Positions 15,851 to 24,974 of a stretch of DNA of 64,000 nt are shown one piece after another. The DNA is from a virus (Duplodnaviria; Caudoviricetes), in the IMG/VR virus record IMGVR_UViG_3300037400_005024, positions 32,001 to 96,000 of that record; one strand, written 5' to 3'. Position 1 is the first letter of the stretch, and each line of letters starts with the position of its first letter. Position numbers and translations under genes: made by a program. Under the pieces are notes generated by a model. The model saw only the letters and a list, made by a program, of their open reading frames with translations, did no database searches and was not told the origin of the DNA.

Positions 15851-16423
15851 TTATAGGATGCCGTGATTTTCTTTAAATTCTTCTTCAGTGATATTTGTCA
15901 TTTCAAGATCTGAAAGATCATCATAATGAACACATTCTGGAGAACAGTAAGTTACTGGAGTCCACTTTCCACATGTCTTGCATCTGTTTAACTTGCCTTT
16001 TAAAAACTCAGCTAAAATTGTATAATAAGAAACCTTTTCAAGATAATTTACTGAAATATTGTCTTTAACTACTGAGTATTCGTTAATAATTCCATTTAAT
16101 ACATCAGCAATGTCTGACTGTAAAACATCAAAAACTAAAGATGAATTACAGTTCTTTTTAGAGATTTTCATAAAAATCTCTGACTTTGAATATCCTAACT
16201 TAGAAAGGAATTTCACAGCAACTCTTAAAGCAGTTAACTTGATCTTCTCATTCTTATTTCTGTTTAAAAGAATCATCATCTTTAAAGTGTTTCTTGTCTC
16301 TGAAGAAAGATTTAAATCAGCATTTGAAATGATCTTTTCAACAGCCTTTTCAGCAGATGCTGTAATCTTAACGCGCTTTGCTTTAGAAAGATCAGCTGGG
16401 TTAACATTAACGAAGTTTAACAT
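15851..16423 (-). CDS. Early hypothetical protein with C-terminal Cys cluster
   Basis: CxxC...CxxxC; behind two early promoters; AGGAG RBS. Confidence 0.7.
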   Translation of the reverse strand: MLNFVNVNPADLSKAKRVKITASAEKAVEKIISNADLNLSSETRNTLKMMILLNRNKNEKIKLTALRVAVKFLSKLGYSKSEIFMKISKKNCNSSLVFDVLQSDIADVLNGIINEYSVVKDNISVNYLEKVSYYTILAEFLKGKLNRCKTCGKWTPVTYCSPECVHYDDLSDLEMTNITEEEFKENHGIL

Positions 16424-16460
16424 AATATTTCTCCTGTTATCAATTTGTTTTTACAGTATC

Positions 16461-16576
16461 ATTATAAACCAAATTTTTTAAAAAGTAAACCAATTTTTTA
16501 AAATTTTTTTATTTTTTTTTTATTTGATTTAACTTTTTACATATACATTATAAACCAAAACTTAGAAAAAGTAAAC
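16461..16576 (-). promoter_or_regulatory. Tandem early promoters
   Basis: GTTTACT-N17-TATAAT at 16461-16490 and 16547-16576. Confidence 0.8.
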
Positions 16577-16698
16577 TTTTTTTTAAAAATTTTGATATTT
16601 GCGTAACAGTTTTATACAAAATGAAATAGAGGAGGATGATGAGGAATAAAAAACGTCAAAGTGTTTTTCAACCTTGACGTTTATTGACATTTTTCAGA

Positions 16699-18531
16699 TC
16701 ACTGATTGTATCTTAGAACTTCGTCATAAAGTCCTATTTCTTTTAAGTGTTCAATTGAAACACCAGCACCTTCTCTGAATCCGCAATGAGGGCATTCGTC
16801 ACCAATGATTCCAAGATATCCACAAACTGGACATTGATCGTTTTGAGTATTTATAGAGAAATACTGTAAATTTTTCTTTGCAGCATATCTTACAATAGCT
16901 TCGTATGCATCCAAGTTTTTGTTTGGATCACCATCTAATTCGATATATGTTATAGAACCAGCATTACAAATCTCGTGATATGGAGACTCAACGTCAATTT
17001 TATGCAAAATAGAAGTGTTGTAATAAACAGGAACATGGAAACTATTTGTGTAATAATCTCTGTCTGTTACACCTGGAATAACACCAAAAATCTTTCTATC
17101 TTTTCTTAAGAATGTTCCAGCTGTACTTTCAGCAGGTGTTGCAAAACAACTCCAAGATAAACCAGTCTTTTTAGATTCTTCATCCATTCTATCTCTTAAA
17201 TGCTGAATAATTTTAAGACCAAGTTCTTGAGCTTCTTCTGATTCACCATGATGTTTTCCAGTTAAAGCAACTAAACATTCTGCTAAACCACAGAATCCAA
17301 CTGAAATTGAAGATTGCTTTAAAATTTCACGAATAGTGTCGTTTGGTCCATACTTATCAGAATCTAAGTATAAACCTTGACCCATAAGGAAAGGATAGTT
17401 ATAAACATGCTTTTTTCCGATGTACTCAAATCTATCTTTTAACTGCTGAATTGCATCATCAATTAAATTATCAAAATCATTAAAGAACTTCTTTAAATCA
17501 CCTTTAGCTAAAATACCAAGTCTTGGTAAATTTAAAGTATTAAAACTGAAATTGCCTCTTCCAGTTACTTGTTCATGATCTTTGTCATAAGTGTTTCCAA
17601 TTACGCGCGTTCTGCAATTGTGTGAATGTACACCGCTTAAATCAAAAGTATCTGATTCAGTTTCGACATCAAATGAATCATCTGTTTTGTTTAAATATTC
17701 AATGTCATTAACTTTTTCTTCGTGCTTTTCAATATCATAGTAAATTCCAGCATCGTAAACTTCAAGAGGTGTGCTGAAATACTTTAATTTCCAAAAGTGT
17801 TTAATTGGATGATCAAAACGAATTTCAGAAACATTTTTATGTTCAGTTTTAATATAACCCAACTTATTAAGATAAAATTCAATAATATCTAAGTAATTTT
17901 CTGTAAAATCAAAAACTTGAACTAATGTCTTTCCTAAAGATTCAGCTGCAATTTGACGTTTAAAATGATTATCCTTAGTTGTACAAGTATAATTTTTATT
18001 CTTTTTAGTAATTTCAGCATAAGAAACATTAGAAGCATGACTTTCAGACGGATTGATATCTATGAATAAGTCTTTATATGATAAATCAAAAATGAAGTCG
18101 CCTAGAACACTTTCAAACTTAAAGTCTAAGTTAAATTTCTTTAATAACTCATCATGAACTTTTTTTGTCTTCATAGAAATAACTGGTCCTCTTGCTTTTA
18201 GTATCTCTTCATTGTTCATATTCTTTAAAGTATTAAAATAAGTTTTATGACGTTTTAAATTAGCTTCGTCTGTATGAGAATTTATGTCGCTCTTTAATTT
18301 ACTTTCTGGAGTATTAAATGCAAATGCTCCATATCGTTCAATCTGTGTTTTCCTTGTTTTAGCTTTAATTTCTGGCCTTTGCATTGGATTATAAACACCG
18401 TACTTTTTAAAATATAATTCAGATCGATATTTATATAAGCATTCATTAGAGCAAAAATTCTTTAGATGCTTAACTGTCCGAATGAATTCTTTTCCGCAAA
18501 CTTTACATTTGCATTTTTCATTATCGTACAT
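16699..18531 (-). CDS. nrdD: Vsr-like homing endonuclease + C-intein + NrdD C-terminal part (no glycyl-radical motif)
   Basis: Zn finger, KYG..NP repeats, DINP..SH; FDVETESDTFDLSGVHSHN|CRTRV; GRGNFSFNTLNLPRL, ATPAES, YYTNSFHVP, CPVCG; ends without RxxGY. Confidence 0.9.
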   Translation of the reverse strand: MYDNEKCKCKVCGKEFIRTVKHLKNFCSNECLYKYRSELYFKKYGVYNPMQRPEIKAKTRKTQIERYGAFAFNTPESKLKSDINSHTDEANLKRHKTYFNTLKNMNNEEILKARGPVISMKTKKVHDELLKKFNLDFKFESVLGDFIFDLSYKDLFIDINPSESHASNVSYAEITKKNKNYTCTTKDNHFKRQIAAESLGKTLVQVFDFTENYLDIIEFYLNKLGYIKTEHKNVSEIRFDHPIKHFWKLKYFSTPLEVYDAGIYYDIEKHEEKVNDIEYLNKTDDSFDVETESDTFDLSGVHSHNCRTRVIGNTYDKDHEQVTGRGNFSFNTLNLPRLGILAKGDLKKFFNDFDNLIDDAIQQLKDRFEYIGKKHVYNYPFLMGQGLYLDSDKYGPNDTIREILKQSSISVGFCGLAECLVALTGKHHGESEEAQELGLKIIQHLRDRMDEESKKTGLSWSCFATPAESTAGTFLRKDRKIFGVIPGVTDRDYYTNSFHVPVYYNTSILHKIDVESPYHEICNAGSITYIELDGDPNKNLDAYEAIVRYAAKKNLQYFSINTQNDQCPVCGYLGIIGDECPHCGFREGAGVSIEHLKEIGLYDEVLRYNQ

Positions 18532-20557
18532 ATACTACATCTCCATTATGAATGTCTTTTACAAAAGTTCTACCTTTATCTTTAATATCTAAAGGATGGT
18601 CATCAGTTAAAATCAAAGTCTTTGAATCTGTTTTTACTTCAACCCAGTTAGAAACATTCAAATTTCTAAGAATACCTTTGCATTTTACAAAAGAACTGTT
18701 ATCTTTAATTAAAACATTATCTAATTTAATGTATTCTGATTTTTCAGTTTTCTTGTAAACACCGAATTCATCTTTTAAGAAATTGAAAGCATCAATGAAT
18801 GATAAATCATACATAGTATCTTTATAGATAAAAGTAATCTTTTCATTCTTGTCTGCACATCCCATAACCGCAATTTCTGTTTCTGGATGACCTTCCTTGT
18901 AATACTGAGCATTGTAAGGAGAATCACAGAATGTGAAATTTGGAAATAAACGTTTTGCAGATGTCTTAATTGCTAACTTAAATAAATCATAATTCTTAGA
19001 CTTTGGATCTAAATTTACAGATTTTTTAATCTTAAAAATCTGAACTGGGAATATTGGTGTTTCAGATCTTCCAAGACCTTTCTGAGTAGCCAACAGAACA
19101 TTCTTCACAATCATTCTGCCTTCTTCAGAAGTATCTGTTCCGTAGTTGATAGAACTAAACGGAGTCTGCGCACCACAATTATGAACTACTGCAAAATTAT
19201 CAGAATTTTTATCCTTAACACAGAAATTATGGTTATCTTCAACTTCAATGTCAAATACTTCTTCAGTAATGTCATTTTTCATAAATACAATTGATGAAAA
19301 ACCATCTATAGTTAAAACATCCGTTGCATACTGTGCTTCAACGTATCCTTTTGATGTATAAAGCTTATGATCTGGAGTGCATCTTAATCTCTGACCATTT
19401 TCAAGAACTAATAGAAGAAGTTCCTTTTCACCATTATCTAATACTCTTTTAACCTTTTTATACTCATATTCTTGAGTATTTACATTAAATGATAACACAT
19501 AATCATTTACTTTGAGTTTATTGATGTTCGTATTACCATCTGCAGCCACGATTATCTCATCAGCAGGTAAACATCTAGAATGCATAGTATTAAAATTGTG
19601 AATTAGAGCTTCCATTGCCTGATATGTTTCTTTATCAGTTTTCTTTAATGCACGTTTATATAACTTTTCAAAAATTTCAGAATCAATTTTAAGTAATTCT
19701 GATAATTCTGATTTTGAATCCAAGTTTAAAATTGTATTGTACTTTTGATAAATTTTATCAGTTATTTCTTTAGTAAGAATATTCTTAAAATCTTTTTCAG
19801 TATCTTCTGAATCAAAATAATCATTTAAGCATTCTCTTAAATGATTTACAAATGACTTTGCAACGTACGGTGCTAAATCATAATCAAATGTCGGAAAAGC
19901 CTGGCCACCAAACATTTCATTCTGATTAGACTGCAAAACAATACAAGCTAAATTTGCTGCTGTTTTAATTGACTGAGGTTCTCTTACAGTTCCATGTCCA
20001 GTATTAAAACCAGATTTTAAAAGTTTTGCTAATGGAATAAACAAGCAATTCATTGTAATGCTATAAAAATCTAAATCATGTACATGAAAATCACCATTTT
20101 CATGTTGCATTGCAAACTTTGGCTTAATTAAGTACTTTAAATTATAATCTTTTGATGCTTCTGTACCAATTTTTAACATTGTACCCATTGAGGTATTAAC
20201 ATCAATGTTTGCATTTTCTCTTTTTAGATCTAATTCAGAACTTTCAATTTTATTGATATCATCAAAAATCTTAGTTAACTGTGTATTTGCATCTCTGGCT
20301 TTAGCTCTGTCATGTCTGTAAATGATGTATGCTTTTGCCTCATCATACATTCCACGCTTAACAAGTTCTTGTTCAACCAGGTCTTGAATTGTTTCAACTC
20401 CAGTATTATCAGAAATTTTATTCTGAACTGAATTTGCAATCTCATAAACTAGTGCTTGATTTGTATTATGAACTTCGTCAAAACACTTTGAAATTGCTTT
20501 AATGAGTTTAGAACTTGAAAATTCTTCAACTCTTGCATCTCTCTTTCTAATTCTCAT
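18521..20557 (-). CDS. nrdD: NrdD N-terminal part (ATP cone, cis mini-intein, terminal N-intein)
   Basis: IRKRD ATP cone, HVHDLDFY, QNEMFGGQ, TPFSSINYG, PIFP; inteins at HSR|C and MG|C. Confidence 0.92.
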   Translation of the reverse strand: MRIRKRDARVEEFSSSKLIKAISKCFDEVHNTNQALVYEIANSVQNKISDNTGVETIQDLVEQELVKRGMYDEAKAYIIYRHDRAKARDANTQLTKIFDDINKIESSELDLKRENANIDVNTSMGTMLKIGTEASKDYNLKYLIKPKFAMQHENGDFHVHDLDFYSITMNCLFIPLAKLLKSGFNTGHGTVREPQSIKTAANLACIVLQSNQNEMFGGQAFPTFDYDLAPYVAKSFVNHLRECLNDYFDSEDTEKDFKNILTKEITDKIYQKYNTILNLDSKSELSELLKIDSEIFEKLYKRALKKTDKETYQAMEALIHNFNTMHSRCLPADEIIVAADGNTNINKLKVNDYVLSFNVNTQEYEYKKVKRVLDNGEKELLLLVLENGQRLRCTPDHKLYTSKGYVEAQYATDVLTIDGFSSIVFMKNDITEEVFDIEVEDNHNFCVKDKNSDNFAVVHNCGAQTPFSSINYGTDTSEEGRMIVKNVLLATQKGLGRSETPIFPVQIFKIKKSVNLDPKSKNYDLFKLAIKTSAKRLFPNFTFCDSPYNAQYYKEGHPETEIAVMGCADKNEKITFIYKDTMYDLSFIDAFNFLKDEFGVYKKTEKSEYIKLDNVLIKDNSSFVKCKGILRNLNVSNWVEVKTDSKTLILTDDHPLDIKDKGRTFVKDIHNGDVVYVR
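18524..18859 (-). mobile_element. Split intein N-half (NrdD), 112 aa
   Basis: MG|CADKNEKI...LTDDHPL...stop. Confidence 0.85.
19178..19573 (-). mobile_element. Cis mini-intein, 132 aa
   Basis: CLPADE...CTPDHKL...VFDIEVEDNHNF...VVHN|C. Confidence 0.93.
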
Positions 20558-20566
20558 TTTAATCCT

Positions 20567-20716
20567 CTAAAATGAATGTTTTACTCTGTCGTGTTCTTCT
20601 GCACGCTTAGCATTATTCCACTTTGAAATATCGCCGACTAAATAACCTGTGATTCTTCTAATTCTTGAAAATTTTAAATTCTTTCCTATTACACCGTTTT
20701 CAATCTTTGCTTTCAT
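20567..20716 (-). CDS. nrdD: Stand-alone NrdD glycyl-radical domain (49 aa; not in ORF track)
   Basis: Hand translation MKAKIENGVIGKNLKFSRIRRITGYLVGDISKWNNAKRAEEHDRVKHSF; AGGAG RBS. Confidence 0.9.
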   Translation of the reverse strand: MKAKIENGVIGKNLKFSRIRRITGYLVGDISKWNNAKRAEEHDRVKHSF

Positions 20717-20800
20717 TTTAAAACTCCTATTTACTAATGGTAAAATTATTTATTCAACGGTTTTTACCTTCTATTGCATCCGGACGAGTGGCCTTAAACT

Positions 20801-21331
20801 TTATTTTCCTTGATTTTCAATAAATTTAATAGCTTCCATTGCAATTTCGTTTGGAGTTTTAAAATTACACTTAATTTCTATTTTGTTCTTAATACTAGAT
20901 TTTCCTAGAGCTATTCTAAAAGCATCTATTTCATCTGAGATGTCACTTACTAAGTTTGAGATGTTATTACCATCATCTCGTGCTGCCAATGTGACCGGAT
21001 CATCACTTAATAGGATTAAGAACACATCTGATCTCTTTAAAGATTTTTCAAGTTCTAGAACATAATCACCTGAATATCCTCTATATTTCGGTGAGTATAC
21101 CATTTCTCCAATATGTGATCTGTTAACAATGAAATTAAAATCAGTGTTTAATATTTTAAACATATTTTTATTAATTTCAACTGAAACATCTTTAACTGAC
21201 ATTCCGCCATCAAAAGGTTTTACACCTGAATAATGTAATTCAATACAGTTTTCTCTGTAAAATCTATTTTTAAGAGATTTGATTAGAGTATCTTTACCAA
21301 CTCTATCAGGTCCTTCGATAATAATAACCAT
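20801..21331 (-). CDS. Deoxynucleoside monophosphate (thymidylate-type) kinase
   Basis: IIEGPDRVGKDT P-loop, NRSHIGEMVY. Confidence 0.8.
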   Translation of the reverse strand: MVIIIEGPDRVGKDTLIKSLKNRFYRENCIELHYSGVKPFDGGMSVKDVSVEINKNMFKILNTDFNFIVNRSHIGEMVYSPKYRGYSGDYVLELEKSLKRSDVFLILLSDDPVTLAARDDGNNISNLVSDISDEIDAFRIALGKSSIKNKIEIKCNFKTPNEIAMEAIKFIENQGK

Positions 21332-21400
21332 TTGAAAATTTCCTTTTTCTTTTAATTATAAATCACGAATAATTTATTTTAAAATTAGTCCAAGAATTTA

Positions 21401-21434
21401 AAAAATGCAGAAACTGAAAAGATTCTGCATTTTT
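21401..21434 (-). terminator. Intrinsic terminator
   Basis: aaaaatgcagaa...ttctgcattttt. Confidence 0.65.
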
Positions 21435-21455
21435 TAAATAATTACTCTTTAAGAA

Positions 21456-22631
21456 CTATAACCCATATTCTCTGCTCTTAACTTTAAAATGGATTTTCAT
21501 ATCGTCAGTTCTAATTACGATACCTTCGTGGTTCTTATCTCCATCATAAACTACAAAATGACTACCTTCTGTAAATTTTAAATTATCGACAAATTTCTGT
21601 AAGCTTTCGAGGTCATATCTATTTAGATCAATATCTAAATACTGAACTGTCCTAAAACCTTTAATTCCTGCACCATTAATCATATCGCAATATTCATCAG
21701 GGTTTAAATCTCTTAGGCCATTACGAACTCTATAAACATTAAAATTTTCACCATCCTTATAAATTCCTTTCTGGACTTTTGGGGATGTATATTCACCTTG
21801 TAGAATTAAGTTAGGATGATCTTTAAAAAATGGTTTAAGCCTTTCACAGAAAGCGTACATGTCTTTATCACCTTCTACATTTCTTCCAAAAACTGCAAGT
21901 TCTTTTCCAAAATAAAAAGGATTCTTTAAAGATTTAATATTTAAAAGATGCTTTGTAATTTGATCTTTTAAAGGTACTTTTTTATTTCTATGAATAATCT
22001 TTTTAAAGATAAATTCAAATTCTTTCTTAATTTCTTTAAAGTTGTACTTAATATCTTCAATAACATCTTTTAAAGATCTGTTTTCTAAAAAGACAGTCAT
22101 TGATTTTCCTTCAAGTTTAACCGAAGTGTAGTACTTTTTATCTTTAATCTTATCCAACATTGAAGGATCATTCATTAAGTTGTCTTCATCACTCTTAGGA
22201 ATTAAGTCAACTGGAAAACTTCTAACTCTTGCTAACTCTTTTCCATTAAACTGTTTTGGGCTAGCATCATAACGATCTTCATCTTTTCGAACATTGAAAA
22301 CATCATCATAAACTTCACCAGCTTTAATTTCTGTTTTCAATTCTTCTGAAGTCATCACTAAGCCAAATGAGTATACATTACTCATTTTTATTTTTCTAAT
22401 TAAGAATCCTTTACAACGTTCGTTGTAACAACGCTTTCTTAGAAATTCAAATACTGGAGTTTCTGGAAGAATACTATCAACTTCAAAATAACAAACAACG
22501 TCACCAGGCTTAAGTTTCTTAGAACCAATAACTGTATAAGCATTTTCTTTAAAATGTAAAAGGCCTATTTTATCTTTGCCTTCAATATCATCTACCTTAG
22601 AGATAGTGACACCATAAGCCATATTTCTCAT
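21456..22631 (-). CDS. RNA ligase (Rnl2/DRB0094-like)
   Basis: N-terminal OB domain YFEVDSILP, KLEGKS, LQGEY, EGIVIR, FKVKS. Confidence 0.85.
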   Translation of the reverse strand: MRNMAYGVTISKVDDIEGKDKIGLLHFKENAYTVIGSKKLKPGDVVCYFEVDSILPETPVFEFLRKRCYNERCKGFLIRKIKMSNVYSFGLVMTSEELKTEIKAGEVYDDVFNVRKDEDRYDASPKQFNGKELARVRSFPVDLIPKSDEDNLMNDPSMLDKIKDKKYYTSVKLEGKSMTVFLENRSLKDVIEDIKYNFKEIKKEFEFIFKKIIHRNKKVPLKDQITKHLLNIKSLKNPFYFGKELAVFGRNVEGDKDMYAFCERLKPFFKDHPNLILQGEYTSPKVQKGIYKDGENFNVYRVRNGLRDLNPDEYCDMINGAGIKGFRTVQYLDIDLNRYDLESLQKFVDNLKFTEGSHFVVYDGDKNHEGIVIRTDDMKIHFKVKSREYGL

Positions 22632-23427: not shown

Positions 23428-24006
23428 TTACTTTCTCTCTTTGTACCAATCAGGTTCATTGCCTTCAAGTGATGAGAATTTAAACATACTATCCATTTTT
23501 TTAACATGTGAAACATCCCATTTTGAGATATCTCCATTGAATTTAGATTCACAGAACATCCAAGACATATTTTCAACACTTGAAACATCCCATTTTGAGA
23601 TATCTCCATTGAATTTAGATTTCTCAAACATATTACTCATATCCTTAACATTTGAAACATTCCACTTTGAGATATCTCCATTAAAGTTAGATCTACAGAA
23701 CATCAATTTCATATTCTTAACTTTTGAAACATCCCATTTTGAAATGTCACCATTGAATTCAGATTTTAAGAACAAACCTTCCATATCTTTAACATTTGAA
23801 ACATCCCATTTTGAAATGTCACCATTGAATTCAGATTTTAAGAACATGCCTTCCATATCAGTAATCTTTGAAGTATCAATAAAGTTAAGGTCACAATTAA
23901 AACCTTGTTCTTCGATTGTATCTTCAATAATTTCCTTCAGTTCATCTTTAGTTTTAGGTTGAACTGTAGTTTTAGATGCTTCATTTAAAAAATATGTAAA
24001 TTTCAT
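23428..24006 (-). CDS. DUF285/BspA-like repeat protein
   Basis: 22-aa repeats FNGDISKWDVSNVxxMxxMF. Confidence 0.9.
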   Translation of the reverse strand: MKFTYFLNEASKTTVQPKTKDELKEIIEDTIEEQGFNCDLNFIDTSKITDMEGMFLKSEFNGDISKWDVSNVKDMEGLFLKSEFNGDISKWDVSKVKNMKLMFCRSNFNGDISKWNVSNVKDMSNMFEKSKFNGDISKWDVSSVENMSWMFCESKFNGDISKWDVSHVKKMDSMFKFSSLEGNEPDWYKERK

Positions 24007-24052
24007 TTTTTACCTCAAAAAATCCACTTAAACAAGTGGATTTTTAAATTAT

Positions 24053-24625
24053 TTAATCTTTGTACCAATCTGGCCCATTGCCTTCAAGAGGTGAGTGTTT
24101 AAACATATTATCCATATTGATAGCATTTGAAACATCCCACTTTGAAATGTCTCCGTTGAACTCAGAATCGTAGAACATATCACTCAAATTGCTAACATAT
24201 GAAACATCCCACTTTGAAATGTCACCGTTGAATTTAGACTGTCTAAACATCAAACGCATCTTTTTAACTCTTGAAACATCCCACTTTGAAATGTCCTTAT
24301 TGAATCTAGAGAACTCAAACATACCTTCCATATTTATAACATTTGAAACATTCCATTTTGAGATATCACCATTGAAGATAGAATTGCAGAACATACATTC
24401 CATATTCTCAACATTAGAAACATCCCATTTTGAGATATCACCGTTGAATTTGGTGTTGTAGAACAATTCACTCATGTCAGTAATCTTTGAAGTGTCAATA
24501 AAATTAAGGTCACAATTATTGCCTTGTTCTTTAATTGTTTCTTCAATAATTTTCTTTAATTCAACCTTATTTTTAGGTTGAACTGTGGTTTTACCTGCTT
24601 CGTTTAAAAAATATGTAAATTTCAT
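24053..24625 (-). CDS. DUF285/BspA-like repeat protein (tandem paralog)
   Basis: Same repeats; likely start MKFTYFLNEA at 24625 after late promoter 24658-24665. Confidence 0.9.
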   Translation of the reverse strand: MKFTYFLNEAGKTTVQPKNKVELKKIIEETIKEQGNNCDLNFIDTSKITDMSELFYNTKFNGDISKWDVSNVENMECMFCNSIFNGDISKWNVSNVINMEGMFEFSRFNKDISKWDVSRVKKMRLMFRQSKFNGDISKWDVSYVSNLSDMFYDSEFNGDISKWDVSNAINMDNMFKHSPLEGNGPDWYKD

Positions 24626-24656
24626 TTTTTTTCCGTATAGTTGTGAAAAACTTTTA

Positions 24657-24974
24657 TTATTTATAATCTGGAAAATCTGAAAGGTCATACCCGGCCTTTT
24701 CAAGTAACTTTTTCAGTTTAGTGTATTCTCTAATATATTTGTTTCTAGTTTTTTCTTCAAACTCACCTTGAATGAACAACTTTAACATTCTAAGTCTTGT
24801 GAAAGGACTGCTTAAGTCCCATTCAGCTGTAAATGAACTGTCTGTTGATGTGTATTTCATTCCGTGTTTTTTGTCGTACCAAACATTACCATCTTTTTTA
24901 AATGTTGACAGGACCGGAATTACACAAACTGCAACTAAACAAACAATTAAAAATATTAAAACAATATTCTCCAT
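24657..24974 (-). CDS. Hypothetical protein with N-terminal TM helix
   Basis: ORF, AAGGAG RBS. Confidence 0.65.
   Translation of the reverse strand: MENIVLIFLIVCLVAVCVIPVLSTFKKDGNVWYDKKHGMKYTSTDSSFTAEWDLSSPFTRLRMLKLFIQGEFEEKTRNKYIREYTKLKKLLEKAGYDLSDFPDYK

Follow-up and report, generated by a model that had tools for sequence, protein, structure and literature searches.

To our knowledge, the radical glycine sits on the catalytic chain itself in all characterized class III RNRs and glycyl radical enzymes, with the pyruvate formate-lyase (PFL) spare part GrcA/Y06I as the sole exception. One-piece NrdDs, e.g. those of phage T4 and P. copri (8P23), comprise an ATP-cone, an NRDD barrel, an MGCRTRV finger loop and a four-Cys zinc ribbon, all shared by the phage protein described here, and residues 708-738 of P. 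copri NrdD are >60% identical to the phage radical motif (RITGYLVG...W.N.K.AE.HDRV.H). In contrast to these enzymes, the phage chain is interrupted after the zinc ribbon and before the radical loop, the peptide bearing the loop is encoded upstream of the body, and a tail of ~25 aa has been added to the body and a head of ~16 aa to the peptide. Moreover, T4 possesses nrdG whereas this phage does not. Divided catalytic subunits are known from other RNR classes; in Aeromonas phage Aeh1, the class I NrdA is split by a homing endonuclease. The class II NrdJa/NrdJb of Pseudomonas aeruginosa is likewise a split RNR (PMC4520616). Both build a catalytic subunit from separately translated pieces that assemble non-covalently, as is proposed for the phage NrdD, but in neither is the radical store detached from the barrel, nor is the order of the pieces permuted.

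Glycyl-radical loops that act from a separate chain have been described for PFL, where GrcA/YfiD of E. coli and Y06I (vs.6) of T4 serve as autonomous glycyl-radical cofactors (PMC8683613, PMC13450708, PMC1524935). According to a June 2026 review, formate lyases are the only enzymes with known spare-part proteins of this kind, and their existence in other enzymes is treated there as an open question. The phage peptide resembles GrcA and Y06I as a small, stand-alone protein that most likely provides a glycyl-radical loop to a large body in trans, and Y06I is also phage-borne. However, GrcA is a homolog of the PFL C-terminus (Pfam Gly_radical PF01228, IPR011140), whereas the phage peptide matches NRDD alone; and PFL keeps its own radical domain, which makes GrcA a spare, whereas the phage NrdD has none, which would make its peptide obligatory. 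Because it lacks a PF01228 match and its partner lacks a radical domain of its own, the peptide is not a member of the GrcA family.

The peptide gene lies on the minus strand of the window, the 64,000-nucleotide stretch of phage DNA analyzed here, at positions 20567..20716 (ATG at 20716-20714, TAG stop at 20569-20567), and its 49-aa product includes SRIRRITGYLVG...WNNAKRAEEHDRVKH. A preliminary description, made from the DNA alone, had reported a separate small ORF holding the NrdD radical motif behind a strong ribosome binding site (RBS), and both observations are borne out. A Shine-Dalgarno sequence (AGGAG; 20724..20728, minus strand) is read 7 nt 5' of the ATG. In a Pfam scan (E ≤ 0.01), the product matches NRDD alone, at profile positions 532-562 of 562 (E = 6.3e-8, exceeding the gathering score), and the NCBIfam NrdD equivalogs align with it through no more than their final ~34 positions (E = 1.4e-14). 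Residues 17-47 of the peptide align to residues 708-738 of P. copri NrdD (8P23), which sets Gly24 (RIRRITG24Y) against the radical Gly711 (715 as chain 8P23_A is numbered). Neither PHROGs nor NCBIfam contains a dedicated family for the small protein, and a megablast search of GenBank phages with the peptide/nrdD region returned no match. Against its phage relatives the peptide gene has a dN/dS of 0.05-0.08, with synonymous sites close to saturation, in a set that leaves out the pairs with contigs L174 and L015 on account of indels and misalignment; the gene is under strong purifying selection. Together with 1207 small homologs, found in a search limited to proteins of 26-86 aa (E ≤ 1e-3), this places the ORF far beyond chance. 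The homologs share the near-invariant core G.G..F.RIRRITGYLVG...NNAKRAEEHDRVKH; the earlier suspicion that similar short ORFs may exist in anaerobes was right but understated, as they are very common.

The 158-kb source genome has direct terminal repeats, is rated complete, and contains one nrdD body and one radical peptide gene. Weak tblastn matches of the peptide elsewhere in this genome are GDISKW repeats in BspA-like genes, and reflect chance: the peptide contains the word GDISKWNNAK, and two BspA-like repeat genes (FNGDISKWDVS) lie in tandem at positions 23428-24703 of the window.

On the minus strand, the gene order reads: a dNMP/thymidylate-kinase-like gene (20801..21331) upstream of the peptide gene, the peptide gene, nrdD ORF A, nrdD ORF B, and a terminator-like hairpin. 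The peptide gene was correctly described as upstream of nrdD, the correction being that it sits on the minus strand. The two are joined by TAG-AGGATTAAA-ATG (20558..20567, minus strand), a stop-to-start gap of 9 nt in which the nrdD RBS (GAGGA) shares bases with the TAG stop of the peptide gene; this overlap suggests that their translation is coupled. The hairpin, a 12-bp stem followed by a T run (16651..16682, minus strand; a consensus match only), begins 17 nt past the nrdD stop and likely marks the end of the transcription unit.

In a second correction to the preliminary description, the nrdD body itself comprises two minus-strand ORFs that contain one complete mini-intein and one split intein, with boundaries set by alignment to the uninterrupted 756-aa NrdD of the related phage contig L174. 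ORF A (18521..20557, 678 aa; Pfam and alignment to L174) encodes the ATP-cone and N-extein (aa 1-328; 20557-19574), the complete 132-aa mini-intein (aa 329-460; 19573-19178), a second extein ending in AVMG (aa 461-566; 19177-18860) and the N-half of the split intein (aa 567-678; 18859-18524). ORF B (16699..18531, 610 aa; Pfam, NCBIfam and alignment to L174) encodes an endonuclease-like region with the intein C-half, ending in HSHN (aa 1-305; 18531-17617), then the C-extein, which starts at the finger-loop Cys (CRTRV; aa 306-610; 17616-16702). Predicted splicing regenerates the MGCRTRV finger-loop motif across the split-intein junction. The finger-loop Cys itself occupies the +1 position of the split intein (MG|CRTRV; 17616-17614, 18862-18860), so the body is predicted to be inactive until trans-splicing has taken place. 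The joined exteins amount to 739 aa. Of 249 alignment columns without variation across 56 split NrdDs, they retain 202, which argues for a working enzyme.

As first described, the main NrdD ends after its zinc ribbon with no RxxGY. ORF B terminates in ...CPVCGYLGIIGDECPHCGFREGAGVSIEHLKEIGLYDEVLRYNQ before its stop codon, with a CPVCG...CPHCG zinc ribbon followed by a 25-aa tail. The body exteins cover NRDD profile positions 1-531, where the match stops, and the peptide covers 532-562; the two pieces are exactly complementary. A one-chain NrdD is defined by a C-terminal four-Cys zinc ribbon and a radical glycine (RxxGY); ORF B carries the ribbon, and the RxxGY motif is found on the 49-aa product. 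The phage enzyme fails this one-chain definition, and would function as a cross of NrdD and the PFL-GrcA pair. The idea of an RNR built from three polypeptides stands insofar as there are three translation products, but since the two large ones carry split-intein halves, the mature enzyme is probably a ~739-aa body plus a 49-aa peptide.

We propose that the phage encodes a two-piece NrdD, comprising a spliced body and a separate, non-covalently bound radical peptide, activated most likely by the NrdG of the host; we put the probability of this reading at a little under 0.8. The body would be assembled from the two nrdD ORFs, with the mini-intein removed in cis and the split intein joining the halves, to give a ~739-aa NrdD that possesses the ATP-cone, barrel, finger-loop Cys and zinc ribbon and lacks the radical glycine. 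The peptide would be translated separately from its own RBS, just before nrdD, and would dock non-covalently, with its Gly loop entering the barrel beside the finger-loop Cys. A radical-SAM activase, most likely host NrdG, would take the hydrogen of Gly24, and the host is probably an anaerobe with a two-piece NrdD of its own. The glycyl radical domain of P. copri NrdD is a mobile rigid-body element (PMC11226230), which fits the docking proposal. As the peptide gene lies upstream of nrdD, a fusion of the chains by readthrough, frameshifting or stop suppression is impossible; action of the radical loop in trans is therefore most likely. The peptide is the sole radical glycine available to the phage NrdD, so that its primary role would be that of an obligate subunit. 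From the precedent of GrcA/YfiD and T4 Y06I, it is also plausible that the small piece alone, of 5.7 kDa, is renewed after cleavage by oxygen; such renewal, if true, would hold particular appeal where the body has to undergo two splicing events.

The involvement of a host activase is suggested by the absence of nrdG. Searches with PF13353, TIGR02491 and tblastn with bacterial NrdG found no nrdG in the complete 158-kb genome, and nrdG is absent from all three of the records searched from phages that place the peptide first (G000, G001 and G002), of which the window genome and the L024 genome are complete and the L022 record is 68% complete. The phage therefore probably depends on the activase of its host. 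The sole radical-SAM gene of the window genome (PF04055) lies outside the window (G000:C1:99276-100118; L021:1462-2304); it encodes a 280-aa protein with CNLRCNYC whose best matches are peptide maturases, viperin and MoaA, and which lacks an activase signature. In another phage (L015:7001-9174), the second gene downstream of a stand-alone peptide gene encodes a 319-aa radical SAM/SPASM protein (PapB-like). This protein has a weak match to NrdG2 (33 bits), and could be an alternative activase.

Split NrdD itself is widespread among bacteria. Most often, nrdD (750-775 aa) is followed by the peptide gene (50-60 aa) and then nrdG, and such operons were found in Desulfovibrio, Oscillospiraceae, Lachnospiraceae, Selenomonadaceae and others. 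The bacterial split NrdDs have a conserved tail (REGEGVS.EKLRELRRKYP) after the zinc ribbon, and share with the phage the same cut point, NrdD tail and peptide core. The window accordingly contains the body end of this family, a zinc ribbon plus tail (REG.GVS.E.L), and a core typical of its 45-60-aa peptides; however, the family order nrdD-peptide-nrdG is reversed in the phage to peptide then nrdD, nrdG is missing, and the body is further broken by inteins. Among the best 80 of at least 585 species-genome loci, 58 are nrdD-peptide-nrdG operons with a truncated NrdD, 16 show a peptide gene but lack nrdD within 5 kb, and the remaining 6 have a fused gene. In five genomes in which the peptide gene lies apart from nrdD, truncated NrdD is the only form present. 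When the NrdD of phage L024 was used to collect homologs, all of the best 120 lacked the radical motif and ended after the zinc ribbon with the conserved tail. Across 81 evenly sampled genomes of class Clostridia, NrdD is mostly one-piece, with about three split. Two of these 81 genomes combine a full-length NrdD with an extra small peptide, a true spare-part layout: in G024 the peptide lies just downstream of the full-length NrdD (C8:15351-17303 and 17561-17659), and in G026 it is unlinked to the full-length NrdDs (C2:251526-251621). Desulfovibrio falkowii 13CB8C (G006), one of the five genomes with an unlinked peptide, possesses one truncated NrdD and four dispersed peptide genes (C1:1582311, 1520642, 2330929 and 2372179).

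A broader sample of viruses reveals a similar diversity. Across 70 viral loci, the layouts comprise fused genes, nrdD-peptide-nrdG, nrdD-nrdG-peptide, peptide-nrdD, and stand-alone peptides, the last of these being short ORFs with no nrdD within 6 kb in about 40 loci. Five viral genomes rated 91-100% complete hold the peptide only (G003, G091, G093, G094 and G095), and in one prophage the peptide gene is placed between an integrase and a holin gene. These layouts, together with the four peptide genes per NrdD body in D. falkowii and the 62.5% identity of the phage peptide to a bacterial operon peptide, lend themselves to another explanation, in which the peptide is mainly an auxiliary product that feeds the host NrdD as a booster or spare, its adjacency to nrdD is of secondary importance, and peptides made by the host could serve the phage body just as well. 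We consider this unlikely as the main role in the present phage: throughout the window lineage the peptide gene is always directly upstream of a truncated nrdD, to which it appears translationally coupled, and a body without a radical glycine is useless unless some peptide is supplied. The auxiliary role nevertheless overlaps with an obligate-subunit role for the peptide and does not exclude it. A more far-reaching reading, which we offer tentatively and hold to be doubtful, is that the peptide is a diffusible and exchangeable radical cartridge, drawn from a pool that phage and host share and that phages replenish with or without a body of their own, thereby sustaining anaerobic dNTP synthesis, with only the 5.7-kDa piece being lost and replaced after oxygen damage. 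If true, no spare-part system would be known earlier outside PFL, and its gene would be traded between viruses and bacteria.

The two-piece reading is reinforced by the conservation of the layout among related phages. The order kinase, peptide, nrdD is common to five further contigs (L022, L172, L173, L174 and L175), which derive from different samples and assemblers and encode peptides 78-94% identical to that of the window; this upholds the permuted order given in the preliminary description. The nrdD of L174 carries no insertion, and its 756-aa product likewise ends after the zinc ribbon. In L022, L172 and L173, a non-coding insertion of ~320 nt takes the place of the inteins. A second occurrence of peptide then nrdD was found in L024, from an unrelated, Desulfovibrio-type phage with a complete, GC-rich genome of 54 kb. 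In a tree of the C-terminal half of NrdD, L024 groups with Desulfovibrio split NrdDs (support 97), and the window, L022 and L174 form a separate clade (support 100); from these separate positions, the permuted order arose at least twice. An AF2 model of the truncated L024 NrdD on its own has moderate confidence (pLDDT 75.6), with the tail as a short helix and the finger loop at low confidence; as a single-chain model it is not informative on peptide binding.

These relatives also bear on whether the window nrdD is a decaying, non-functional gene whose 3' end was displaced by a rearrangement tied to mobile elements. Selfish elements are indeed present in the gene (two inteins and an endonuclease-like domain), and nrdG is missing. 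Decay is very unlikely all the same, given that the exteins are free of frameshifts and stops and retain the 202 invariant columns, that the peptide is under purifying selection, and that relatives whose insertions differ or are absent preserve this layout, the split being conserved in many bacteria besides.

Less probable again is that the chains are rejoined covalently, by protein trans-splicing, ligation or RNA back-splicing. Inteins do occur in the same nrdD gene of this phage, but the 25-aa tail of NrdD and the 16-aa head of the peptide are devoid of intein hallmarks: there is no nucleophile past the zinc ribbon junction, and no HN followed by Cys/Ser/Thr before FSRIRR. An Rfam scan of positions 16300-21500 found no intron or other RNA family, and the bacterial homologs have their own start codons and spacers of 22-309 nt. 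Least credible of all is a misassembly by which the 3' end of nrdD was placed upstream, an error that the preliminary description had named as fatal to its reading and for which we found nothing in favor: five other assemblies from different samples have the identical order, the ORF has its own start and RBS, and the tail and stop of the body are common to the bacterial split forms.

The tail and head set the split forms apart. In fused relatives, the zinc ribbon is separated from FERIRRITGY by only 3-10 residues, so the split forms have acquired extra sequence on both sides of the cut, as a body tail and a peptide head. Since the natural fused homologs lack these segments, they cannot stand in for the two-piece complex. 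The word GEGV is found in both the NrdD tail (REGEGVS) and the peptide head (VGEGVKF), and occurs once in fused forms (DGVPF). Judging from these motifs, the repeat may be a short duplication at the cut point, a trace of the origin of the split.

Neither a split or truncated NrdD nor a spare part of the NrdD type turned up in a full-text literature search. With the split widespread in bacteria, what is new here is the phage-encoded body and peptide, the permuted order with two origins, the absence of an activase, and the combination with inteins. The phage provides the cleanest genetic argument for an NrdD radical loop that acts in trans, as the peptide gene precedes nrdD and this layout evolved twice. 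It also provides test material, in the form of a 49-residue substrate for NrdG and, from L174, an uninterrupted body of the same phage lineage. Questions that become testable include how an activase gains access to a buried glycine, whether a radical domain can pass from one body to another, and whether oxygen damage can be repaired by swapping the small piece. Annotation is affected as well: thousands of entries named 'NrdD' have no radical site, and the short ORF that goes with them has in most cases been left uncalled or without a name.

Some features of individual loci extend this diversity. In the closest relatives, L022 (6660-6980) together with L172 and L173, the insertion falls at GDFHIH|DLDFY, has no long ORF, and leaves nrdD as ORFs of 165 aa and 580 aa. 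Rfam (E ≤ 0.1) detects no group I or II intron, or other family, in the L022 nrdD region, and the insertion could be an unrecognized intron or an additional split of the body. In L174, a terminator-like hairpin (GGTTGT...ACAACC then T7; 2752-2818) lies between the peptide gene and nrdD, and could raise the peptide transcript above that of the body. Finally, on an Anaerobiospirillum-like contig (L010:407-2541), a reverse-transcriptase gene and two small ORFs immediately precede a second copy of the peptide gene, whose product is 54 aa long.
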